Origin: an uncultured Candidatus Poseidoniales archaeon
Lineage (GTDB): Archaea > Thermoplasmatota > Poseidoniia > Poseidoniales > Thalassarchaeaceae
DNA length: 13,579 nucleotides
Assembly: GCA_964645485.1 (NCBI GenBank)
Contig: CAZXZO010000035.1
Location: 1 to 13,579, forward strand
Direction of reading: 5' to 3'
Both the position numbers and the translations under genes were made by a program. Each line of letters starts with the position of its first letter. Positions within the stretch are counted from its first letter, which is position 1. Below the pieces are notes generated by a model. That model saw only the letters and a program-made list of their open reading frames with translations. It had not been told where the DNA came from and searched no databases. Below are positions 1,569 to 13,466 of the stretch, one piece after another.

Positions 1569-4550
1569 TCAGCTGTTGTTGTCAAGCCATTCTTGCCCGT
1601 AGTAATTCCATTGTTCCTGAGTCCACCCTGCTGGCAAACCTTCTGCTGGAATTGCTGGCGGGCCTTGTTGCACAGACTCTGCCACTGATGCTGGAGGCGG
1701 TGGTGCTTCCACCACCGGTGCAGGCGCTTGGAATGCTTCCGTGGATGGAGGCGGCGAAGTATCAAACACTTGTTCAGGTGAAGGTGCAAGCCCTGGTGGA
1801 GGCGGTGCTTCAAAGGCAGCCGCTGGTGGAGGCGGAGCCGCACCCATTGGTGGAGGCGGAGCCGTCATTAATTGACCAAGTGCTTGTGGAGAATCATCAG
1901 ATTTCCTACGCACAATCATAAGAGTCGACACACCAATTAAACCTGCAATCAACACAGAAATCAGAATAATCATTGGCAGATTACTTTTGACATGTCTTTC
2001 AGCATCATGAGGATAATAATCAGCCGCATCAGACCAACCATCCCCATCAGAGTCAACACATCCAAGTCTGTCTTTTGTCGAGGTGCCGGCTATTTCTGGA
2101 CAATCATCAGAAAGATTTGTCCCAGTTTGGTCAGAGTAATTATCCCCATCAACATCTGTCCACAGTAATTTGTGATTTGGATACGCATCTCCCGCATCAG
2201 ACCACCCATCACCGTCACTATCTACACAACCTAATCGGTCTAGAGTTGAGTTACCCCATATGTTCACACAATCGTCTGGAGTTGTCGCTGGCGCTAAATT
2301 GTCACCATATCCATCATCATCTGAATCCAACCATTGGGTCGGGTCGTATTCGAAGTCATCTCCTTCGTCAGACCACCCATCATCGTCTGAATCAAGGCAG
2401 CCGAGCCTATCCTCTGTGCTGGTACCATAATCTGTTGGACAAATGTCAGCCATATTTGCGGGTGCAGGATTATCACCATAACCATCGAAGTCAGAATCAT
2501 TCCACTGTGAGTCCTCACCGGGGAACGCATCAGCACCGTCATCCGTTGTCCAAACTGTTGAAGGATTGGAGTATCCATCTTCATCAAAATCAATGCAGCC
2601 TAGCCTGTCAATGGTTGAATATCCCTCTTGCAAAGGACACCAATCACCATCTGTGCCGTCAATATTGTCACCATAACCATCCTCGTCACTATCACGCCAT
2701 TGCGTTTGGTCTGTAGGATAGTCATCCTCTATGTCTGCCCAAGAATCTCCATCCCCGTCTGGGCAACCTTTGTTTTCACCTGAAGTCGCTGTACCAACCA
2801 AGTTGGAGCAACCATCCTCTGAGTCGCTGAATCCATCATCGTCATCATCGGTGTCTTCACCGTTGTCTTCGCAACCATCGCGGTCAGCGTCGTTTGAAGG
2901 TGATGAAGAGAATGAAAGAGGACTTGTGGGGCAGCGGTCAAATTGCGGCCAACCTACCACGCATCCTGGTTTGGCAGTTGCGCCGTCACAGATGAAATCA
3001 TCATCATCATCGAGGTCTTCTGATGCATCACGACAACCATCTGAGTCATAATCAGTTGAAGATGAATCACTAATCCATCCCAACTCTCCCTTTGCGCAAT
3101 CATCCATTCCATCACTGAGTCCATCGTTGTCATCATCAAGGTCTTCTGGACGGTCATCTTTGCAGCCGTCTCCATCATAATCAGTCACAGGGGTTGAAGT
3201 CCAACCTGTTTCCCCAAATGGGCAATCATCAGCATCTGTCGCATCAGACAGAATACCATCGTTGTCATCATCAGGGTCACAGACATCACCCATCGAATCG
3301 CCGTCATGGTTCTCCTGACCCGGATTTGCAATATCTGGACAGTTGTCAAGGCTATCACGAGTACCATCAGAATCAGTGTCCGGGAATGGATCTATTCTAA
3401 CCACTCTATTCAACGCTGCATCAACATACCACAATTTGTCATTAGGCCCGACTTCAAGACCCATTATTGAATTCGCATTGGTGTCAACTGTTTGCATCAA
3501 TGTTGCACTTTTACCATCTGTTGCTAAGTCAAAAGCACTAATTTTTCCATTTGAGTTTTGGGAAACAAAGAGAGTATCACCATGAAGGGCTATTCCTGAG
3601 GGAGATGAAAGACTAGTTGCAAGTACACCCCATTCAACATCTCTAATCTCGCTGTATTCTGCTAGTACAGAGTCCATCTGTGTACTAGAACCCATGATAT
3701 TTGTTGAAGTGGTAGTTGTGTCATCTGTATTGACCCAAAGAACTCGACCTGCACCTGTATCAGAGATATAGAGAATCCCATTAGCCTTGTCTAAAATCAT
3801 GTGCCCGGGAATATTTGCATTTCTAGTTGGTGTGATTTCCACATATCTGTGCACAACACCATCATCGTGGTCCTCCCCACCAGTATCATGGTCGTTATTG
3901 AAATCATAATACACTAACTCTTCATAATATCCGTCGTTGTACCAGTAAGCATTTCCAGAATCGTGTGCAATACCCACCCCATTAGGACTCTCATGTAGCA
4001 TGTCAAGGTGGCTACCCAAAGCCCCGCCTTGTTGCTGATTCTCCATGGCAAAGTGAGATAGCGAACCTGGCCACAATGCTGGCCCCATGAAATTATTTGG
4101 TGCTGCTTGACCATTGTAGGTGTTCCGAGTTTCCTGAGCAGTAGCAAAAATGTAATCAAATTCAGAATGAGATTGACCAAAAGCAAGGGCTGAAACCTCT
4201 TCCATGAAATGGTATCCATAAGCATCTTGCCTATTCTGGCTTGACTGGCTTGATAGCCCTGCATTTGAGATGATAGTAATACTATCAGTAGCCTGATTTA
4301 CAACCCATAATTCGTTCTGTCGCGCTGTATTTGGGTGGAACTCAAGATCCCGCGGGACATCTAATTGACTGCTTGCAGAAGCAATGATTGTCTCATCAAA
4401 ACCCGCTCCAAACTGTTCAACATATGTGTGTGAACTACGAGTGTCTACTTCTGCAATAGTAGTTGGTACTAATAACACCAAAATACTTGAAAACAACATC
4501 AAGAAAGTGAAACCTGTTGCCCATCTGATAGCCCTCAAATTTGTATTCAT
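1569..4550 (-). CDS. Secreted, membrane-anchored protein: signal peptide, beta-propeller-like domain, thrombospondin type 3-like Ca-binding repeats, TM helix, Pro-rich tail
   Basis: Hydrophobic N-terminus ending TTIA-E. NHL-like blades (PRDLEFHP, LYISDTGAGRV, PSGIALHG, GLEVGP). Many DxDxDG/C repeats. TM segment LPMIILISVLIAGLIGVSTLMIV followed by RRK. PPPP runs. C-terminal GLPAGWTQEQWNYYGQEWL. Confidence 0.9.
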   Translation of the reverse strand: MNTNLRAIRWATGFTFLMLFSSILVLLVPTTIAEVDTRSSHTYVEQFGAGFDETIIASASSQLDVPRDLEFHPNTARQNELWVVNQATDSITIISNAGLSSQSSQNRQDAYGYHFMEEVSALAFGQSHSEFDYIFATAQETRNTYNGQAAPNNFMGPALWPGSLSHFAMENQQQGGALGSHLDMLHESPNGVGIAHDSGNAYWYNDGYYEELVYYDFNNDHDTGGEDHDDGVVHRYVEITPTRNANIPGHMILDKANGILYISDTGAGRVLWVNTDDTTTTSTNIMGSSTQMDSVLAEYSEIRDVEWGVLATSLSSPSGIALHGDTLFVSQNSNGKISAFDLATDGKSATLMQTVDTNANSIMGLEVGPNDKLWYVDAALNRVVRIDPFPDTDSDGTRDSLDNCPDIANPGQENHDGDSMGDVCDPDDDNDGILSDATDADDCPFGETGWTSTPVTDYDGDGCKDDRPEDLDDDNDGLSDGMDDCAKGELGWISDSSSTDYDSDGCRDASEDLDDDDDFICDGATAKPGCVVGWPQFDRCPTSPLSFSSSPSNDADRDGCEDNGEDTDDDDDGFSDSEDGCSNLVGTATSGENKGCPDGDGDSWADIEDDYPTDQTQWRDSDEDGYGDNIDGTDGDWCPLQEGYSTIDRLGCIDFDEDGYSNPSTVWTTDDGADAFPGEDSQWNDSDFDGYGDNPAPANMADICPTDYGTSTEDRLGCLDSDDDGWSDEGDDFEYDPTQWLDSDDDGYGDNLAPATTPDDCVNIWGNSTLDRLGCVDSDGDGWSDAGDAYPNHKLLWTDVDGDNYSDQTGTNLSDDCPEIAGTSTKDRLGCVDSDGDGWSDAADYYPHDAERHVKSNLPMIILISVLIAGLIGVSTLMIVRRKSDDSPQALGQLMTAPPPPMGAAPPPPAAAFEAPPPPGLAPSPEQVFDTSPPPSTEAFQAPAPVVEAPPPPASVAESVQQGPPAIPAEGLPAGWTQEQWNYYGQEWLDNNS
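1996..3389 (-). repeat. Coding TSP3-like Asp/Cys-rich repeats
   Basis: Repeated units such as DRLGCxDSDGDGWSD..D.(F/Y)P.D..QW.D.D.DGYGDN. Homologous nucleotide points at 2026, 2194 and 2365 give 168 and 171 nt periods (56-57 aa). Confidence 0.85.
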
Positions 4551-4720: not shown

Positions 4721-5590
4721 ATGGGGCGAATTGGGAGAGGAATAGACGCCACCGCGAAGTGGCTCCTCAAGTGGCGAATAATTCGCGGTCCAGCCCGCTT
4801 AATCGCCAACTCAAGATACGCTTACAGTTTCATCACACGCACGGACCGAGTCAGAACAAATCGCTTACGTGACCGCTTAAAACGCGGCACGGTTCCCGAG
4901 CACGTTTCAATCATTATGGATGGAAACCGACGCTTTGCGTGGTCACGGGACATGGAAAAAGAAGTGGGGCATAAACATGGCAAGGAGAAACTCAAGGAAG
5001 TGATGGACTGGGTGTTGGACCTTGGAATACCCTACCTTACTGTCTACGCACTTTCCACAGAGAATGTCACCGGTCGGGAAGGGGAAGAACTAGACTCTCT
5101 CTATGCCCTATATATTGCAGGGTTTGAGGAGATTCGCTCCGACCCTAAAATTCACCAGCGCGGTGTGAGGGTACAGGCTGTTGGCCGCATTGATTTGTTG
5201 CCTGAGGATGTTCAAGCGGCCATCAAAAGGGCTGAAGATGATACCAAAAATTATGACAAATTTCTCTTCACTGTCTGTCTTGCTTATGGCGGGCGTGAAG
5301 AGATTGTGGATGCTGTCAGAGAAGTTGCACGGGAGCATGCTGAAGGTGAGTTGAGCCTTGAGAATATTGACACAGAAGCGATTTCAAGCCGACTTTACAC
5401 AGCCGATTTACCCGACCCAGATTTAGTCATAAGAACAAGTGGAGAGGAACGGATTTCTAACTTTTTGTTGTGGCAAATCGCCTACTCAGAACTACATTTC
5501 ACCGATGTTCACTGGCCTTCATTTAGCCGCCAAGATTTGTATGAAGCGATAGATTCCTACCAGAAGCGCAAGCGCCGATTTGGAGGCTAA
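4721..5590 (+). CDS. uppS: cis-prenyltransferase (polyprenyl/undecaprenyl diphosphate synthase)
   Basis: HVSIIMDGNRRFA, LTVYALSTEN, CLAYGGREEI, DPDLVIRTSGEERISNFLLWQIAYSEL and RKRRFGG are the conserved cis-IPPS motifs. Confidence 0.97.
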   Translation: MGRIGRGIDATAKWLLKWRIIRGPARLIANSRYAYSFITRTDRVRTNRLRDRLKRGTVPEHVSIIMDGNRRFAWSRDMEKEVGHKHGKEKLKEVMDWVLDLGIPYLTVYALSTENVTGREGEELDSLYALYIAGFEEIRSDPKIHQRGVRVQAVGRIDLLPEDVQAAIKRAEDDTKNYDKFLFTVCLAYGGREEIVDAVREVAREHAEGELSLENIDTEAISSRLYTADLPDPDLVIRTSGEERISNFLLWQIAYSELHFTDVHWPSFSRQDLYEAIDSYQKRKRRFGG

Positions 5591-5609
5591 ACCTGTGATT
5601 TTGAGTCTC

Positions 5610-6737
5610 TCACTTTTTCAGCATTCGCCGGAATTTTGATGGCTTTACGCGGCGGGATTTGCTTTTCACTACCTTTTTTCTTGAAGGTCTAGGTCTTGAG
5701 AGAATACTTCTATTATACCATGGAAAGTGTCTTCTTGATTTTCGTTTCTTCGAATTTGGTTTCACTGACCTATATCTCGGTCTGTAGTTGCCTCTAATTT
5801 TGTTTTTTCGATTCTTAATTCTGGTCTTCCAACCCTTTTTAGCAGCGATGCTGTGTCTTTTCGATTGCCCGAACCAACCTGGACCGCGTCCTTTTCTGGT
5901 TGTTCTCTTTCTCATACTTCTAACCCTATATTTCCTCCCATCTTTCCATTCGAATAAACTACCTTCCCATCCCACCATTTTCCGAATATGGCGGAGTACC
6001 TTTGAGCCAGGTTTGCTCCTGACATGAATTCTACGACGGTCGCGCCTAGTGGTGTATTCAAAGAACCTATCAATAGCCTCATTCTGTCCTTTGTCAATTA
6101 AGGTTGAAATCTCTGAGCCGACAAAATGCTTCCTGGCACTCCGTGGTGCATCCTCCCCGAATTTGCCAGAATTTTGAAGTTGAATGTGATGTCGTGCACG
6201 AGGTTGTTCTGTGAATCGTTTTCGATCTTTGAACATCGCTTTTGAAGTCGCTTTTTGATTTGTGAATGCAGTCTTAGATTGACGTACTTTCCTTGTGATA
6301 TACCAATAATTTGGTTCATTCACATCAGACCAGTGATACGGATTGTAACGTGCAATTGTTTCTGCCTCTGTCATCGCCTCATCAAGATCTCGGTCAGCTC
6401 GAGAGTTGGGGAGGTCACGTAAAACCCCCCTACGACTTTTGTCAAATCTTCGCAGGTGATGAGTCAACTCATGTACTAAAATGGCAGGCTTGCGGTCTGT
6501 TGGATACGACTTGCTTAGTTCAATAGAACTTCGGCCGTCCTCAACCTCCCATGTCCCCGCAAGACCTGCTTCTAATTGCTTAGATTCTATCTTGAGACCA
6601 CGCATAGTTCTGCGTTCAGATTCCGAGAAGTTTCTTTTAATCATTCCATTAATTCGTCCAATTTGGTTCTTGGTAAAGCCAATGAACCGGATACCTTGAC
6701 GCCTAATCGTGGACCCATCCTTTCTATTCTTTGCCAT
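5610..6737 (-). CDS. Hypothetical zincin-like metalloprotease with a highly basic C-terminal region
   Basis: 375-aa ORF. ILVHELTHH (HExxH, residues 89-93, nt 6473-6459) plus downstream DEAMTEAE (candidate third ligand E120). SD-like GGAG at 6751-6748. Hand count about 105 K+R of 375. Confidence 0.75.
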   Translation of the reverse strand: MAKNRKDGSTIRRQGIRFIGFTKNQIGRINGMIKRNFSESERRTMRGLKIESKQLEAGLAGTWEVEDGRSSIELSKSYPTDRKPAILVHELTHHLRRFDKSRRGVLRDLPNSRADRDLDEAMTEAETIARYNPYHWSDVNEPNYWYITRKVRQSKTAFTNQKATSKAMFKDRKRFTEQPRARHHIQLQNSGKFGEDAPRSARKHFVGSEISTLIDKGQNEAIDRFFEYTTRRDRRRIHVRSKPGSKVLRHIRKMVGWEGSLFEWKDGRKYRVRSMRKRTTRKGRGPGWFGQSKRHSIAAKKGWKTRIKNRKNKIRGNYRPRYRSVKPNSKKRKSRRHFPWYNRSILSRPRPSRKKVVKSKSRRVKPSKFRRMLKK

Positions 6738-7227
6738 TTTACTAATTCTCCTGTTTTCTTATTGCATTATTAATTATAAGAGGGGTTTCAGATTTCTTGG
6801 TGATGTATGGTTTCTTATTGAGGAATTTCTCCGCACTCATCTCCAGAAAAGTTACCCCGAAGAGCCAATCTGTTATACGATTGAGCGAGATGGAATTCTC
6901 TTTGGCACTAAATTCCCGACAGATGATATGCCTCCTATCTCCGAAATTCATCATCTTGACTTCATCGGTGGCGAGGAACCCATCAGATTCGCTGTTGATG
7001 GTGTGCTTCAGACTGAAAAGATGGAACACTGCCCTAGGTGCGGGAATGCATTTGAGTACAGTGACACGCTTTGGGTAGAAGAATTGGAATATCCTCCGCC
7101 CCAATATGAACGGCCTTACCCGCCTAATGTTAAATTGACGAAGTTCCACCAATGCTGGGATTGTTATTCTGGAATTATCACACAATATGATACCACAATG
7201 AGAGGCGGTCCACTCGGACCTCGATAA
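6709..7227 (+). CDS. Hypothetical protein with CPRC...CWDC zinc-binding pair; start uncertain (first in-frame ATG is 6928)
   Basis: 172-codon open frame, acidic, with two CxxC motifs 39 residues apart. The GTG at 6709 overlaps the start of the divergent gene and is doubtful. Confidence 0.5.
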   Translation: MDPSFLFFAILLILLFSYCIINYKRGFRFLGDVWFLIEEFLRTHLQKSYPEEPICYTIERDGILFGTKFPTDDMPPISEIHHLDFIGGEEPIRFAVDGVLQTEKMEHCPRCGNAFEYSDTLWVEELEYPPPQYERPYPPNVKLTKFHQCWDCYSGIITQYDTTMRGGPLGPR

Positions 7228-7359
7228 TTTCATTCTCATTTTATTATTGGGACCGCGATTACATCTGCTATACTGCAATCTCCTCCTAAATTCGGGCACC
7301 CCACATTTACCGGACAAAGGGTATCTGAGCAATTCTTCCCAAGTCATTTGATACCACAT
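6742..7359 (-). CDS. Alternative or overlapping hypothetical ORF (205 aa), antiparallel and in register with 6709-7227
   Basis: ATG 7359 lies about 30 nt downstream of a minus-strand TTTATAT (7391-7385). Its TAG ends 4 nt before the zincin ATG, and its last codons contain that gene's SD. No recognisable motif, so it may be a shadow ORF. Confidence 0.25.
   Translation of the reverse strand: MWYQMTWEELLRYPLSGKCGVPEFRRRLQYSRCNRGPNNKMRMKLSRSEWTASHCGIILCDNSRITIPALVELRQFNIRRVRPFILGRRIFQFFYPKRVTVLKCIPAPRAVFHLFSLKHTINSESDGFLATDEVKMMNFGDRRHIICREFSAKENSISLNRITDWLFGVTFLEMSAEKFLNKKPYITKKSETPLIINNAIRKQEN
6768..6779. promoter_or_regulatory. AT-rich bidirectional TATA-like element (TATTAATTATAA)
   Basis: Palindromic TTATAA at 6774-6779 lies between the zincin start (42 nt away, minus strand) and plus-strand ATG 6803 (29 nt away). 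Confidence 0.45.
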
Positions 7360-7463
7360 TGATGTTCGGGGGGTTATTCAAACCATATAAATGCGTGGTA
7401 TTTACGTCACATATCCCATAAACCATTGGGTTTCAGTTAAATGTGACTAACACTTCGCATAAT
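7302..7463. promoter_or_regulatory. Divergent promoter region with an operator-like C(A/G)CAT array
   Basis: Boxes at 7302(+), 7355(+), 7388-7395(-), 7408(+), 7438-7445(-), 7456(+). 42-bp dyad at 7406-7447. TATA-like TTTATAT (minus, 7391-7385) and TTAAAT (plus, 7437-7442, 28 nt before ATG 7465). Confidence 0.55.
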
Positions 7464-7464
7464 T

Positions 7465-7926
7465 ATGGCAAAAGAAGACTGGACAACCGTTTCAATTCCT
7501 CGCGCCCTCATCAACCGAATTCAACACGCCATTGACAACGGGGTGCTTGACCACAGCAACCCATCTCAATTCATCGCTTATGCATCTCGTAAAACACTTG
7601 ACCAAGCAATAGATAGAGATTACAGACAACAATTACAGAATCAACAAACTTCTCAAGTGGAAATGGCTCAATTACTTAGTAAGGTGAAGGGGCAATTTAT
7701 TGAAAAATCAAGCGATGAAGATCTGAGTAAAGAAGCGGTAGAACTCTTGCTAAAGGGGGCTACTGATAACTCTAAGATGCAAATGGCAGAAGGATCTGTC
7801 ACACTAGAACAGGTCTTAGCATTAGTAGAAGAGTTAGCAGCAAATGAGATATTTGATTCAGATGAAATTGTTGCATTTCGCTCCGCTATCAAAGCAATGT
7901 ACACAAAATCTGAGGAAAATGCATGA
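7465..7926 (+). CDS. Ribbon-helix-helix (CopG/Arc/MetJ-like) DNA-binding protein with a ~100-aa acidic helical C-terminal extension
   Basis: WTTVSIPRALINRIQHAI...HSNPSQFIAYASRKTL fits the RHH strand-helix-helix pattern (TVSIP..L...I.......S.SEFIR.A). Stop overlaps the Nudix start (ATGA at 7923-7926). Confidence 0.72.
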   Translation: MAKEDWTTVSIPRALINRIQHAIDNGVLDHSNPSQFIAYASRKTLDQAIDRDYRQQLQNQQTSQVEMAQLLSKVKGQFIEKSSDEDLSKEAVELLLKGATDNSKMQMAEGSVTLEQVLALVEELAANEIFDSDEIVAFRSAIKAMYTKSEENA

Positions 7927-8393
7927 ATCAGGGACCATGCCCAACTTGTGGAACCTACCACAACCCTGCCCTGACCGTTGATGCGGTCGCAGTTCGAGGT
8001 TCTGGTGAAGGGAGGGAGGTTCTCTTGATTCGTAGAGGTCAAGAACCGTGGAAAGGCTGTTGGGCTTTTCCTGGTGGATTTGTTGATGTCGGTGAAAGAC
8101 CTGAAGATGCAGCGGCACGCGAATTGTTCGAAGAATGCAATATTGTTGGCACTGTCAGCAAGAGTGACCCAATCATTGCTGTGCGTGGTGACCCAAAACG
8201 TGACCCGCGTGGACATGTTGTTACTATTTTCTACCGGATAGAACTTGATGAGGAATCCAAGGGAACTGGTCTGGGGACAAACAACGAACCGGTAGCAGGT
8301 GATGATGCCGCTCATGCTGAATGGGTCAAACTTTCAGAAGTTGACCTTGAAAATATGGGTGCCGACCATGCTGAAATAATTCAGTTACTCTGA
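7923..8393 (+). CDS. Nudix hydrolase (ADP-ribose pyrophosphatase-like)
   Basis: Nudix box GGFVDVGERPEDAAARELFEECNI, preceded by VLLIRRGQEPWKGCWAFP. Also RDPRGHVVTIFY and AGDDA, plus an N-terminal CPTCG. Confidence 0.95.
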   Translation: MNQGPCPTCGTYHNPALTVDAVAVRGSGEGREVLLIRRGQEPWKGCWAFPGGFVDVGERPEDAAARELFEECNIVGTVSKSDPIIAVRGDPKRDPRGHVVTIFYRIELDEESKGTGLGTNNEPVAGDDAAHAEWVKLSEVDLENMGADHAEIIQLL

Positions 8394-9119: not shown

Positions 9120-10421
9120 ATGGTTGACCCTACCTACAGCCCCGACGGAAAGTTCATGTGGACTGGAAGTGAATGGATACCAGCACCTCCAAAATCAGAA
9201 CCAGAGCCACCATCACCTAGTGAACAGGCCCTGAATATGCAAGATTCTGTCATCGGTGGCGATGTTGTTCACAGCACGGTCATCAATAATGACGCGACTG
9301 CTGTAACTACTGCAGTTATTACCGCTCTTCAACAACTGGGTATGGTTAATCAAGAACCCGCTGCTCCAGTAGCACCACCACCAATTGCAGAAGTTGAGTT
9401 ACCACCATCATTCGAAATCGGTGATCATGTTGAGTACCACAGCCCAACAAATGCTCGTTGGTTGGATCGCTGTACAGTAGTTGGCATCAATGATGACCGC
9501 ACCTATCGTATAGAGGTGCCAAAGTCATCTAGAATTGAAACAAAGCATGCGGTTGTCATTGGTTCTGCTCCAGGCACCATCCGGCCCGCAGCACCTCCAT
9601 ACAATGTTGGAGACCGCGTGTTGGTCAACTGGAAAAATTACGGAACTTACTTCCCCGGGAAAATTAGCGCTGAACATGATGACCACACATTCTTGATTAA
9701 CTTTGATGATGGTGATGTTGAAGACAATGTAGAGTGGAGTCGAATTGAATCTATGCCAGAAGAATCAGCAGAAGTTCAAGACTACCTCGATAATATGGGC
9801 GATAATGAAAGAGAGTTTGTTGAAGCATTCCAAGTTTTTGATGAAGACGGCAGTGGAACTATTTCGGCAATGATGTTTTTTGAAATCCTCACTGCAATGG
9901 GCGACGACCCACTTGAAGTTCAAGAGGCGATGGAGCAATTTGCAGAACTTGGAATAGAGATGGATAGCGAACTGGATTATCGTGAATTGGCCAAATACAT
10001 GGCTAGCACCGATGGTGATAATGAAGGAACACAATACAAAACCGAGGTCGTCATTCGTGATGCTGAAATCGTTGATGGCTGCCTGAGAGGCTATGCTTAT
10101 GCACATCCGAAACTCGGAGAAGGGCCAGTACGAACCTCTCAAATTATGGGTGTTCAATATGATGAACGAGCCACTGCTAGAGTAGAAACGAGAAATACGA
10201 TGTACGTAGTTGGGCCTACTGGATGGGCTAATCCACCTGCCGACCACCCATTCAATTCCGTTTATTCAATAGGTGAGCAAATCAAGGTAGAATGGAACGG
10301 AAGTTGGTGGGATGCTAGTATCATCAATATCTCCGATGATAAATATCAGATTCACTACACAGGATTTGATTCCAGTTGGGATGAGTTTGTCACTACTGAG
10401 CGAATGCGCAAACTTGGTTGA
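9120..10421 (+). CDS. Multidomain protein: three Tudor/Agenet-like SH3-fold domains, an EF-hand pair and a small unknown domain
   Basis: FEIGDHVEY...(98-157); YNVGDRVLVNWKNYGTYFPGKI...FLINFDDGD (161-211); EAFQVFDEDGSGTISA (EF-hand, 231-295); YSIGEQIKVEWNGSWWDASI...YQIHYTGFDSSWDEFV (382-432). Confidence 0.85.
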   Translation: MVDPTYSPDGKFMWTGSEWIPAPPKSEPEPPSPSEQALNMQDSVIGGDVVHSTVINNDATAVTTAVITALQQLGMVNQEPAAPVAPPPIAEVELPPSFEIGDHVEYHSPTNARWLDRCTVVGINDDRTYRIEVPKSSRIETKHAVVIGSAPGTIRPAAPPYNVGDRVLVNWKNYGTYFPGKISAEHDDHTFLINFDDGDVEDNVEWSRIESMPEESAEVQDYLDNMGDNEREFVEAFQVFDEDGSGTISAMMFFEILTAMGDDPLEVQEAMEQFAELGIEMDSELDYRELAKYMASTDGDNEGTQYKTEVVIRDAEIVDGCLRGYAYAHPKLGEGPVRTSQIMGVQYDERATARVETRNTMYVVGPTGWANPPADHPFNSVYSIGEQIKVEWNGSWWDASIINISDDKYQIHYTGFDSSWDEFVTTERMRKLG

Positions 10422-10430
10422 AGTGTCAAA

Positions 10431-11447
10431 TCATCTGAGGATTTGTTGCAACTCATTGTAGCAATCACTCCAACCAACTGCTAAACCATCTCCACGCCGC
10501 CGCATCTGTACTGCTTCGCGCCAGGCTGCGACCTCATTATTGAGTGCAGGTCCTTTCACAGTGGAGTCTATTCTAAACAACAATCCTCCACCCAAATGTT
10601 GGTCTAAAAACCCTCTTTGAGCCTTCGAAACAAGTAATGTTGGAACTCCTAGACTAACTGCTTCATGAGCCAAAGTCACCGATTCTGACAGCACCCCATG
10701 ATAATCTGAAATCGCTTGAGGGAGCCCCCAAGGGTCGTTGATTGATTGGTTTTCCCCAACCGTTGTGACCTCCATTCCTAAGTCGGAAATTAGTGGTTCA
10801 GCACTAACCAACTCATCCTTGTCATGTACCCCTCCACCCTGCAAAGAACGGTGTAAGATTCGTGGAACTGAGCCTTCCTTCAAATCTCTAATTGTACTTG
10901 GTTGAGCAAGATAAACATGAGGGAGTTCTCCAGTCAATCTGTGAACCCTGATGCCATTATTTTTACAATCATCAATAAATCCTCCATCGAGATCTTGCCG
11001 CCAATTTGGTGTAACAATAACTTCGGTTGCTGATGATAATGCAATTCCGTGGGCGAGATGATTTACCTCTGTATCTGTGATGTAAATTCGACGGGGGATT
11101 TTGGCTTTTTTAGCGGCGTTGAGTTCTAACGCCGCTCCCTTAACAACGACTTTTTCTATCGGTTTTCCAGTTATATTTCTACGCTTTAGAATTGATGTGA
11201 CTGAGTGAATTCTTCTCAAAGCACGTATTTCTCGCTGAATTGGTAATATTCGCTTACCGACTGGACGCTTGACTCTGAGGATATGTCGCTTAGGTAGTGG
11301 AGATGAGTTGCTCTCAATCATTGCATCTATTTCAGCCCGCTTAGTTGCTATAATAATGTCCACAGGACTGCCACTTTGAATGAACTTGTGAAACAGTTGC
11401 ATATGGGCTGGATGGTCGAGTACCCAACAGGTCGGACTCTCTACCAT
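10431..11447 (-). CDS. DUF354-like GT-B fold protein (putative glycosyltransferase / UDP-sugar-binding)
   Basis: N-terminal WVLDHPAHMQLF, IYITDTE, and C-terminal SESVTLAHEAVSLGVPTLLVS resemble DUF354-family motifs as I recall them. Confidence 0.7.
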   Translation of the reverse strand: MVESPTCWVLDHPAHMQLFHKFIQSGSPVDIIIATKRAEIDAMIESNSSPLPKRHILRVKRPVGKRILPIQREIRALRRIHSVTSILKRRNITGKPIEKVVVKGAALELNAAKKAKIPRRIYITDTEVNHLAHGIALSSATEVIVTPNWRQDLDGGFIDDCKNNGIRVHRLTGELPHVYLAQPSTIRDLKEGSVPRILHRSLQGGGVHDKDELVSAEPLISDLGMEVTTVGENQSINDPWGLPQAISDYHGVLSESVTLAHEAVSLGVPTLLVSKAQRGFLDQHLGGGLLFRIDSTVKGPALNNEVAAWREAVQMRRRGDGLAVGWSDCYNELQQILR

Positions 11448-11472
11448 GATTCTCGCTCATGCTCTAAGACCA

Positions 11473-11554
11473 TCAATAGAACGGTTATTTGAACCGGAAA
11501 AACATCACACACCCACAATCTGAATGGGCGTAAACCTCGTCAATAGAACGGTTA
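11473..11554 (+). repeat. Exact 15-bp direct repeat TCAATAGAACGGTTA in a divergent intergenic region
   Basis: Copies at 11473-11487 and 11540-11554, 67 nt apart. Confidence 0.9.
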
Positions 11555-11580
11555 ATGGCTCGCCATTACCTCTCGGCATC

Positions 11581-11955
11581 ATGGCAAAGGAACGAATTGA
11601 GGTAGAAGGTGGTAAGACATACGGTCCGTACTCACCGGGAGTGAAGTCTCATGGTGTAATTTGGTTGGCTGGACAGATTGCTCCAGAAGCGGGAGATGAC
11701 ATTGCTTCTCAGACTGCGGCAAGCCTTGAGAAAATTGATGCACTACTTGCTGCTGCTGGCGTTAGTAAAAATGAAGCCTGCTTTGCCCAGGTGTTACTTG
11801 ATGACATTAATGACTTCACAGCAATGAATGAGGTCTACTCGGCTTGGCTTGAGGGTGTTGAAATCCCACCCGCACGGGCTGCATTTGAAGCAGGTGCGCT
11901 ACCACGCGGGGCAAAAGTGGAAATCGTTGTTCAGGCTATTGATGAGAATTGCTGA
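11581..11955 (+). CDS. ridA: RidA/YjgF/YER057c/UK114 family enamine/imine deaminase
   Basis: GPYSPGV, WLAGQI, DFTAMNEVY, PPARAAF (catalytic Arg) and LPRGAKVEI. Start 11581 preferred because TTAAT lies 29 nt upstream. Confidence 0.9.
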   Translation: MAKERIEVEGGKTYGPYSPGVKSHGVIWLAGQIAPEAGDDIASQTAASLEKIDALLAAAGVSKNEACFAQVLLDDINDFTAMNEVYSAWLEGVEIPPARAAFEAGALPRGAKVEIVVQAIDENC

Positions 11956-12005
11956 TAACCTCTGCAACAGAGTCACTTTTAGCAAAAGGGGGCTCGGAAG
12001 GAATC

Positions 12006-13466
12006 ATGGAGAGCGTGGAATGGCCTGTCGGCCTTGACATAGAGAAGGCTTCTGCCGCCTTCAAAGCCTACGATATTCGAGGCATTGCTGGAGACCCACT
12101 AACTCCTGATTTCGCTTATCGTCTTGGCCGTACTCTAGCTACTTTCCTAGATTGTAACTCACTTGCAGTAGCCCGTGATATTCGTGAATCCGGCCCCGAA
12201 CTTCATGCCTCTTTTGTCAATGGACTTAACGATTCAGGAGTCGATGCCCACGACCTTGGCATCATGCCAACTGGTGCTCTTTATCACGCTACAGTTACTC
12301 TTCCAGTTGATGGTGGAGTCGTTATCACAGCAAGCCACAATCCACCCGAATACAATGGTTTCAAAATGTGTCGAGGATCAGCCGCAATGGCTGGCGACGA
12401 GTTGCAAGATTTATTGCAAGTTTTCCTTGCTGGTAACTTCAAAACTGGTTCAGGAAGCCACCTCATCATTGATGATTTTAAGCATCAATATTACGATGAC
12501 ATAATTGCTTCAACCGGCCTACCTAACAGACCAGTCAAAGTTGTGGTAGATTCAGGAAATGCAGTACCAGGACCATTCATGGTGGACATTCTGAAAATGT
12601 TGGGTGCAGATGACACCTGCATTTTATGCGAATGGGATAACTCATTCCCTATCCACCCTCCCGACCCAACACGCCCCTCAAACATGGAGTTACTCGGAAA
12701 AACCGTACGCGAAACAGGTGCCGAATTTGGTATAGGAGTTGATGGTGACGGAGACAGAATGGGAATGGTGGATGAAAAAGGTAATTTCATTCATCCAGAC
12801 AGATTACTTGCTTTGTTCGCTGCTGACATTCTTTCAAGAGTTTCAGATTCTGCTTCCGAAGCAGCCCGCACCGTTTTTTATGATGTAAAATGCTCAATCG
12901 CCTTAGAAGAAACAATCGCTGCCAACGGCGGAATTCCTTCAATGATGAGAACCGGACATTCGTTCCAAAAACTGGCGCTGAAAAACTCGCCGGAGACTCC
13001 ACTCGCTGGCGAAATGAGCGGCCATTTCTTCTTCAATGACAAGTGGCCTGGGTTTGACGATACGCTGTACTGCACCGCTAGAATGCTGGAGTTAGTAGGC
13101 CGTGACCCATCTCCTGAAAACGGTGGTCCTTCCTTTAGTGAGAGGCTCTCCATTATCCCAACTTACCCAAGTACTGGCGAAGCAAAAGTACCCTTAACCG
13201 GTGGTCGAGAAGAAACCATGGAAAATGTGGAGAATGCTTTTTCAGAATATGAAATGGTTACTGTTGATGGAGTTCGAATTCGGCTTGCTGGTGGCGAGGC
13301 AGAGTCCACATGGAAAGGCTGGTTCCTATGCCGACCATCTAACACTGAACCAATTTTAGTGATGCGAGCTGAGGCTACATCCGAGGATGGTTTGGCTGAA
13401 ATTCGTTCCCTCGTACATGATAAAATCGGCCAATTTATTGACCTGAAAAAATTTGATGAATCCTAA
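12006..13466 (+). CDS. Phosphomannomutase/phosphoglucomutase (alpha-D-phosphohexomutase)
   Basis: FKAYDIRG, ITASHNP (phosphoserine), DGDGDR (metal), GEMSGH (sugar), RPSNTEP. Start ATG 12006 has TTTTAG 29 nt upstream. Confidence 0.96.
   Translation: MESVEWPVGLDIEKASAAFKAYDIRGIAGDPLTPDFAYRLGRTLATFLDCNSLAVARDIRESGPELHASFVNGLNDSGVDAHDLGIMPTGALYHATVTLPVDGGVVITASHNPPEYNGFKMCRGSAAMAGDELQDLLQVFLAGNFKTGSGSHLIIDDFKHQYYDDIIASTGLPNRPVKVVVDSGNAVPGPFMVDILKMLGADDTCILCEWDNSFPIHPPDPTRPSNMELLGKTVRETGAEFGIGVDGDGDRMGMVDEKGNFIHPDRLLALFAADILSRVSDSASEAARTVFYDVKCSIALEETIAANGGIPSMMRTGHSFQKLALKNSPETPLAGEMSGHFFFNDKWPGFDDTLYCTARMLELVGRDPSPENGGPSFSERLSIIPTYPSTGEAKVPLTGGREETMENVENAFSEYEMVTVDGVRIRLAGGEAESTWKGWFLCRPSNTEPILVMRAEATSEDGLAEIRSLVHDKIGQFIDLKKFDES

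Follow-up and report, generated by a model that had tools for sequence, protein, structure and literature searches.

The genome of an uncultured Candidatus Poseidoniales archaeon raises the question of how a protein with the motif of a zinc peptidase and an extremely basic tail came to be encoded in an archaeal chromosome, and what it may do there. The protein, here called P0001, is encoded on the minus strand of contig CAZXZO010000035.1, within a stretch of 13,579 nucleotides that was analysed as a whole and is referred to below as the window. Weighing sequence conservation, predicted structure and genomic context, we consider it probable, on balance, that P0001 is a gluzincin-type zinc metallopeptidase which derives from a mobile element and whose tail binds polyanions.

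A strongly basic protein under purifying selection

P0001 is encoded by an open reading frame (ORF) of 375 aa plus stop at 5610-6737. The coordinates and the motifs HELTH (residues 89-93) and EAMTE (residues 120-124) had been placed correctly by an initial annotation made from the sequence; the strand is minus. The parts of the gene are as follows, in genomic coordinates of the window:

5610-6737, minus strand: whole ORF (P0001), 375 aa plus stop; dN/dS 0.218 against the ortholog in genome G011
6108-6701, minus strand: predicted zincin-like catalytic core, residues ~13-210, from model confidence, PDB fold search and the family core in the alignment
6459-6473, minus strand: HELTH (H89, E90, H93), the HExxH motif in predicted helix 84-98, invariant in 30 aligned family members
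6348-6392, minus strand: predicted "glutamate helix", residues 116-130, with the signature D-L-[DE]-E-[AS]-x-T-E-A-E; E120 and E126 invariant
5925-6074, minus strand: small beta-beta-alpha-beta-beta domain, residues 222-271, conserved; most family members stop here
5613-5936, minus strand: basic tail, residues 268-375, with 22 K, 25 R and no D or E; dN/dS 0.211; predicted to be disordered save for helix 293-314
5829-5879, minus strand: GW motif module G-W-F-G-x4-H-x2-A-A-K-K-G-W, residues 287-303, from motif alignment
6748-6780, minus strand: putative upstream signals read from the sequence, an AT-rich TATA-like box at ~6766-6780 and AGGAG at 6748-6752, 10 nt ahead of the ATG

The source genome (1.94 Mb) is archaeal, with a full-length archaeal small-subunit rRNA and an archaeal RNase P RNA (212 bits). 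It encodes an acidic proteome: net charge per residue has a median of -0.044 across its 1053 ORFs that reach 200 aa or more. P0001 holds the maximum of this set at +0.189, with the runner-up at +0.109. The count of 47 lysines and arginines and no acidic residue in the last 108 positions, made by hand in the initial annotation, was exact, and the final acidic residue of the protein is D266. The core is also basic, with 58 K/R vs 34 D/E in 267 aa.

The ratio of nonsynonymous to synonymous substitution rates (dN/dS), estimated by the Nei-Gojobori method against the sister-species ortholog (P0060 in G011, 86% amino acid identity), was 0.218 over 374 codons in the P0001 frame. Four of the five other frames of the same stretch gave 0.9-1.4, and the codon-register antisense frame gave 0.35. 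The low ratio in the P0001 frame therefore indicates that the ORF is not a chance frame. Residues 1-267 (dN/dS 0.218) and the tail (0.211) are both under purifying selection, and the frame is intact in three independent assemblies, namely the window genome (G000), G011 and a metagenome contig (L002). A scan of the locus for sigma-70 promoters and terminators is uninformative for an archaeon.

An unnamed family within the zincin superfamily

Searches with P0001 in Pfam, NCBIfam, PHROGs, PADLOC and PDB sequences returned no match, and the tail, the beta domain and the family profile searched in the same way were likewise without a match, which agrees with the earlier remark that no named family could be recognised. 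A word-indexed homolog search retrieved orthologs only, whether the query was P0001 or just its tail. Residues 1-270, compared exhaustively by phmmer with 1.84 billion cluster representatives (50% identity clusters), delineated a family of 56 clusters at E <= 1e-3, with 20 of the 56 at E <= 1e-10.

HExxH is present in 56 of the 58 retrieved family proteins, the two exceptions being short fragments, and the glutamate signature follows ~29 residues downstream. Eleven positions are invariant in a 30-sequence alignment: H89, E90, H93, R102, E120, E126, R130, Y144, D171, R172 and E220. Sub-threshold Pfam matches in family members fall exclusively in zincin families (Astacin, SprT-like, M13). These sequences make up a new, unnamed family, which appears to lie inside the known zincin superfamily.

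A typical member is 400-500 aa long with an isoelectric point (pI) of 9-10. Most members carry ~150 extra N-terminal residues with conserved motifs of their own, and the C-terminus of most lies directly after the small beta-rich domain. P0001 is without the ~150-aa N-terminal domain of its full-length relatives, and is an N-terminally truncated derivative of the family. A split gene, with the missing domain encoded by an upstream ORF of 205 or 172 aa, was also considered and was rejected (hhalign probability 0.2% for both).

Predicted fold and candidate metal site

The AlphaFold2 (AF2) model of P0001, built on the family alignment, has a predicted local distance difference test (pLDDT) score of 74 overall and mostly 80-95 in the core. 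The HExxH helix (84-98) and the helix with the glutamate signature (116-130) are consecutive in this model. By analogy with the gluzincin pattern, E120, which lies 27 residues past H93, is the candidate third zinc ligand. In SprT/Wss1 proteins, as in metzincins, the third metal ligand is a histidine six residues past the second histidine of the motif. The corresponding position in P0001 is D99, and it varies across the family (for example G in P0012). Since this position is not conserved and E120 is invariant, the family appears to be of the gluzincin type. A metzincin or SprT reading with the third ligand at +6 was rejected because the position is not conserved. The gluzincin call of the initial annotation thus finds support in the alignment and the predicted fold, and its analogy with SprT/Wss1 fails on the third ligand.

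We compared the model with 48,161 PDB chain representatives using VIA-align. The top 50 chains are nearly all zincin peptidases (Z 4.8-6.7) spanning model residues 10-209, led by anthrax lethal factor (Z 6.7; 131 aa, 4.2 Å). Further matches include PPEP-2 (Z 6.2), M1 aminopeptidases (6.0-6.2), BlaR1 (6.0), selecase (4qhf, 5.9), Spartan (6mdx, 5.8), PprI (8sln, 5.2), jannalysin (5.1), abylysin (4.9), ArdC (6sna, 4.9) and Wss1 (5ln5, 4.8). A model of the full-length relative P0019 (pLDDT 80) gave the same list of zincins, and its N-terminal domain (~150 aa) had no clear match and no recognised fold. It is the uniformity of the match list, and not the height of the scores, that leads us to the zincin call, and P0001 is accordingly predicted to have a zincin-like fold with a gluzincin-type signature.

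Foldseek searches of the PDB and, with the model of a full-length homolog, of BFVD gave nothing at E <= 1e-3. Neighbours in the ESM Atlas include IrrE-like and viral SprT-like clusters. The beta domain of the full-length model superposes on T4 Dmd (5hy3_B; Z 5.2, root-mean-square deviation 2.3 Å over 53 residues), a resemblance of fold only.

Relatives on virus- or plasmid-like contigs

The full-length relatives are encoded on contigs of 24-105 kb that are rich in ORFans and resemble viruses or plasmids, often together with a serine recombinase. Two such contigs, L003 (27 kb) and L006 (42 kb), consist of strings of co-directional ORFans, and the family member of L006 (P0042, 923 aa, 10001-12772) begins with a fused NUDIX domain (Pfam E 1e-10); a resolvase comes next on the contig. 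A contig from a Thermoplasmata metagenome-assembled genome (MAG), L009, carries genes for a beta-helix protein, an ATPase, the family protein, a CAAX/Rce1-like protein and a resolvase, as well as a protein with a weak match to a primase zinc-ribbon domain. On JGI contigs of ~105 kb (L029/L030) the family gene lies beside giant PKD-domain proteins and dozens of ORFans, and near-identical contigs of this size recur in 12 samples. On TARA contigs of 20-24 kb (L031/L032) it is accompanied by a laminin-G giant protein, a MarR-like protein and a resolvase, and two genes of the ~24 kb TARA contigs match PHROG families of no assigned function. The ~105 kb and the 20-24 kb contigs may be complete genomes of unclassified elements. 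In an all-against-all comparison, the main gene common to these otherwise very diverse contigs was the zincin family gene, followed by the resolvase and the CAAX-like protein.

A further short copy within the same genus (G001; 314 aa) is acidic, is without the N-terminal domain and ends in a short GW-motif tail. It lies on L015 next to a region (7769-8020) with tRNA-Gly(TCC) and, after it, an apparent opposite-strand 3' remnant of a tyrosine recombinase/integrase, which was read from the sequence and not from a profile match. The G001 locus resembles a decayed integrated element.

Together, these contexts support the link to viruses or mobile elements that the initial annotation had raised.

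A basic tail built on a portable GW module

A FastTree phylogeny of the family core nests the P0001 clade in a subclade with P0010, a TARA group (P0014, P0065, P0069 and P0028), P0006, P0070 and the G001 copy. Most of this subclade has a basic C-terminal extension of ~28-45 residues with the motif G-W-[HFY]-G-x4-H-x2-A-A, the exception being P0010, whose 17-residue extension has no GW motif. In P0001 and its orthologs the same extension measures 99-103 residues. As the P0001 clade lies inside the GW-tailed subclade, the tail module is inherited and its extra length lineage-specific: a basic GW module of ~43 aa came from the closest mobile-element relatives and was then lengthened to ~100 aa.

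The earlier description of the tail as protamine-like consequently stands in part: the nearest subclade does have a basic tail of ~43 aa with the same motif, but the length of ~100 aa is found in orthologs only and is no feature of the family. The initial reading had further turned on conservation in homologs and on selection; HExxH is conserved, the nearest relatives are basic-tailed, and the dN/dS values are low in both parts (core 0.22, tail 0.21).

In the AF2 model the GW motif is followed by the tail helix (293-314). The motif occurs at the N or C terminus of ~11 family members, and its profile also matches small basic proteins and, in two proteins that have hydrophobic segments (P0063, P0095), the Arg-rich N-terminus; the module itself has no match in Pfam. 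Its distribution is that of a short portable module.

An acidic form of the motif was seen in bacteria, where hemerythrin-domain proteins end in 2-5 tandem repeats of G-W-Y-G-D-[PS]-x-G-H-[AS]-E-A-[AS] (e.g. G-W-Y-G-D-P-E-G-H-S-E-A-A). These proteins include P0061, P0062, P0064, P0066, P0067, P0079 and P0088, with hosts such as Brevundimonas and Phenylobacterium. The acidic repeat, for which Pfam has no model, is plainly akin to the basic GW motif in the tail of the zincin.

A 2332-bp cassette between uppS and a NUDIX gene

P0001 lies in a segment that separates two housekeeping genes. The components of the segment, other than P0001, are:

5591-7922: inserted cassette, 2332 bp, flanked by the stop of uppS and the start of NUDIX; it contains P0001, an overlapping ORF pair and a ribbon-helix-helix (RHH)-like gene
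6709-7227, plus strand, and 6742-7359, minus strand: antiparallel ORF pair with almost complete overlap; both frames open in G011 and L002
7360-7464: divergent intergenic region, 105 bp
7465-7926, plus strand: 153-aa gene with an RHH-like N-terminus; its stop overlaps the NUDIX start

In G000 and G011 the cassette takes up exactly the space from the uppS stop to the ATG of NUDIX, and G011 and L002 are syntenic with the window. In G005, G016 and G022 (the last from another genus) uppS directly adjoins NUDIX without the cassette; in G005 and G016 the junction reads uppS stop, 3 nt, NUDIX ATG. When 61 genomes from this order were surveyed, each of the three cassette genes turned up in G000 and G011 only, with L002 as an additional metagenomic instance. 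A zincin family member of any kind occurs in 3 of the 21 species of the genus (G000, G011 and G001) and in none of the 40 other genomes of the order. No target-site duplication or terminal repeats were seen at the insertion borders when the junction sequences were inspected by eye, a search that was not exhaustive.

Synonymous divergence (dS) between G000 and G011 is 0.35 for P0001, 0.13 for the overlapping pair and 0.59 for the RHH-like gene, as compared to 0.91 for uppS and 1.08 for NUDIX in the flanks. The lower values in the cassette fit a later arrival or an exchange, and other constraints could also produce them.

Pfam does not identify the 153-aa protein as RHH. A complex prediction for the zincin core (residues 1-275) with this protein scored 0.00, which says nothing either way on binding. 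G000 and G011 share 95% identity in the divergent intergenic region, vs 83-90% in the flanking coding parts; it is a candidate operator and promoter region, where the initial annotation had also noted repeated boxes. At 7923-7926 the sequence ATGA holds both the ATG of NUDIX and the overlapping stop of the 153-aa gene, and this new junction replaces the tight uppS-NUDIX one (5588-5593). Because of the overlap, translation of NUDIX would now be coupled to a cassette gene. The fusion of NUDIX to a family protein in P0042 and the position of P0001 beside a host NUDIX gene may be a coincidence or may reflect a functional link.

The overlapping pair has no family match and no resemblance to the N-terminal domain seen in the zincin family. 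The plus ORF has a dN/dS of 0.41 and the minus ORF one of 0.69, with a very low dS (0.13-0.14) in both. The plus ORF (6709-7227), which encodes an acidic protein with the cysteine pairs CPRC and CWDC, seems a slightly better candidate for the expressed frame.

Resemblance to known metallopeptidase systems

Several described systems share features with P0001 and its family. The ArdC/polyvalent-protein metallopeptidases (MPTase), among them the C-terminal domain of the antirestriction protein ArdC, are also carried by mobile elements and also have a minimal zincin with HExxH and a glutamate in the next helix, joined to nucleic-acid-binding parts (predicted for P0001); the NUDIX fusion in P0042 has a polyvalent-like architecture. 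Unlike them, however, our family is mostly composed of stand-alone proteins of 400-500 aa, its hosts are seemingly archaeal or not known, it has no detectable sequence similarity to them, and the structural match to ArdC reaches the above Z of 4.9 only. An ArdC-N domain was not detected by Pfam in 10 relatives.

With SprT, Spartan and Wss1, P0001 has in common a small zincin core and a basic region, and viral SprT-like clusters are among its Atlas neighbours. It differs from them at the +6 position, with invariant E120 as the candidate ligand instead, and is without a Zn-ribbon or an SHP/UBZ-type module. The SprT-like profile PF10263 does not match P0001 at E <= 10 (best E = 0.11, in 3 of 28 relatives).

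In the M78 family (IrrE/ImmA), the spacing from HExxH to the glutamate resembles the ~27 residues seen in P0001. These proteins (ImmA/IrrE, including PprI; Peptidase_M78/COG2856) are also common on mobile elements and lie beside a small regulator, and PprI, whose structure matches the P0001 model, binds single-stranded DNA (ssDNA; 8sln). In contrast, P0001 is without the GAF-like C-terminal domain, its neighbouring regulator is RHH-like and not a helix-turn-helix (HTH) protein of the Xre type, and the pairing is not seen in the other contexts of the family. Peptidase_M78 (PF06114) gave no match for P0001 at E <= 10, and none at E <= 1 in 28 relatives. Sequence does not support placing P0001 in ArdC, SprT/Wss1 or M78.

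The archaeal minigluzincins (selecase, jannalysin, abylysin) are likewise archaeal and have a minimal gluzincin fold, selecase aligning over 101 aa at 3.8 Å, but they measure only ~110 aa, have no extra domains or basic tails and show no sequence match to P0001. Protamine-like proteins and the DNA-condensing core proteins of viruses resemble the tail in composition only (44% K/R, no acidic residue); the tail of P0001, in contrast, has a defined GW-G-x4-H-x2-AA motif, a predicted helix and an acidic counterpart in bacteria.

Other genes in the window

Two further genes in the window were noted. The plus-strand gene at 9120-10421 encodes a 433-aa protein with sub-threshold to threshold Pfam matches to Agenet, Tudor and chromo-like barrels in two regions and to an EF-hand pair, a combination unusual for an archaeon; the equivalent position in G011, G005, G016 and G022 does not have this gene. 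The minus-strand gene at 1569-4550 encodes a secreted or anchored protein of 993 aa whose N-terminal part resembles a beta-propeller; it also has numerous Asp-rich repeats of thrombospondin-type-3-like character, a transmembrane segment and a Pro-rich tail. The ORF at 575-1843 overlaps the 3' end of this gene, and the true start of the downstream epimerase is therefore probably internal, near residue 97.

Discussion

Our preferred explanation, to which we give somewhat more credence than doubt, is that P0001 is a gluzincin-type zinc metallopeptidase that came from a mobile element and carries a polyanion-binding tail. H89, H93 and E120 would hold the zinc, and E90 would activate the water molecule. 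The K/R-rich tail and the helix of the GW motif would tether the enzyme to DNA or RNA, where it could cut nucleic-acid-bound proteins, or itself. In the parent elements such an activity would probably serve entry, establishment or particle maturation, as has been proposed for polyvalent-protein zincins and ArdC, and the truncated chromosomal copy may have been kept for the benefit of the host or of the cassette. In a survey of bacteriophages and conjugative elements, the zincin domains of proteins that are delivered by phages or plasmids, or deployed early by them (ArdC, P1 DdrB, N4 vRNAP), were connected with self-processing or with attack on host proteins (PMC5512222).

Several observations weigh against this explanation. 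The fold scores are modest, with Z below 8, a range that the tool itself calls common. Binding of DNA or RNA, the most likely role of the tail, is proposed from its charge and composition. No capsid, terminase or conjugation gene was recognised on the family-bearing contigs; scans of IMG/VR with two family alignments or profiles and with P0065 yielded no relatives, and neither did a tblastn search with P0019 against INPHARED phages and PLSDB plasmids. A bolder form of the proposal, which we hold to be rather unlikely, is that the family is a hallmark gene of unclassified archaeal or marine viruses or plasmids (24-105 kb, encoding giant proteins of the PKD or laminin-G kind besides a serine recombinase and a CAAX-like protein). 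The host would then have captured the protease, tethered to nucleic acid, and have recruited it along with the adjacent RHH gene, either for regulation or to defend itself against the parent elements.

The main rival is an ImmA/IrrE-type switch, in which the zincin would sense a signal such as ssDNA through its tail, cleave the RHH-like regulator at 7465-7926, and so derepress the divergent promoters and the coupled NUDIX gene. The M78-like spacing of ~27 residues, PprI and the IrrE-like clusters among the fold neighbours, the divergent arrangement of the zincin and a small protein of DNA-binding type, the high identity of the 105 bp between them and the overlap of the regulator stop with the NUDIX start would all fit such a switch. 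However, P0001 does not match PF06114 even at the permissive threshold used, Pfam does not call the 153-aa protein RHH, and in mobile-element contexts the family gene has no recurring RHH or HTH partner, adjoining giant PKD or laminin-G proteins in place of a lysogeny-switch module; we judge the switch unlikely. Doubtful, too, is a core protein that is packaged in particles or co-transferred with the DNA, whose tail would neutralise or condense DNA and whose protease would process itself, the chromosomal copy being a relic without host function. This possibility draws on the basicity of the whole family (pI 9-10 in most), on the giant adhesin-like proteins next to the gene, which may form a structural module, on the basic GW motif in the Arg-rich N-termini of the membrane-anchored, virion-component-like P0063 and P0095, and on weak BFVD fold matches that include polyvalent, virion RNA polymerase and MuF-like proteins; P1 DdrB and N4 vRNAP offer a precedent (PMC5512222). 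Yet every BFVD match has E > 1e-3, none of the contigs showed an identifiable capsid or packaging gene, and purifying selection on both core and tail of the chromosomal copy would be unexpected for a pure relic.

The same selection bears on the idea that the gene is merely what is left of an integrated element, now decaying and without a function. The missing N-terminal domain, the patchy distribution and the integrase fragment beside the G001 copy would be in line with decay, and the dS of 0.13-0.59 in the cassette, below the 0.9-1.1 of the flanks, could mean a recent arrival; but with a dN/dS of 0.22 over 374 codons, all invariant catalytic residues kept and the frame intact in G000, G011 and L002, we consider decay very unlikely. 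Most improbable of all, in our view, is an HExxH fold with non-proteolytic chemistry, such as a YbeY-like metal-dependent RNase or an HExxH-type oxygenase acting on nucleic acid bound by the tail. YbeY-type structures (1oz9, Z 5.9; 7y7o, Z 5.7) and the HExxH oxygenase domain of ChlB (8s5f, Z 5.0) do appear among the fold matches, and extreme basicity would suit an enzyme that acts on RNA or DNA. However, the invariant HExxH with a glutamate in the next helix is the signature of peptidase-type gluzincins, and the YbeY motif H-x3-H-x5-H is absent here.

The family described here would add a new sequence family to a well-known superfamily, and it could serve as a marker for finding and classifying mobile elements in marine and other metagenomes that are otherwise unannotatable. 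The GW-G-x4-H-x2-AA module, with its basic and its acidic tandem-repeat forms, merits a description of its own. For the archaeon, the chromosomal copy offers a clean example of mobile-element cargo that was inserted between coupled housekeeping genes and then kept under selection, and the protamine-like tail of ~100 residues on a zincin, in an organism with an acidic proteome, makes P0001 a practical candidate for nucleic-acid-guided proteolysis.

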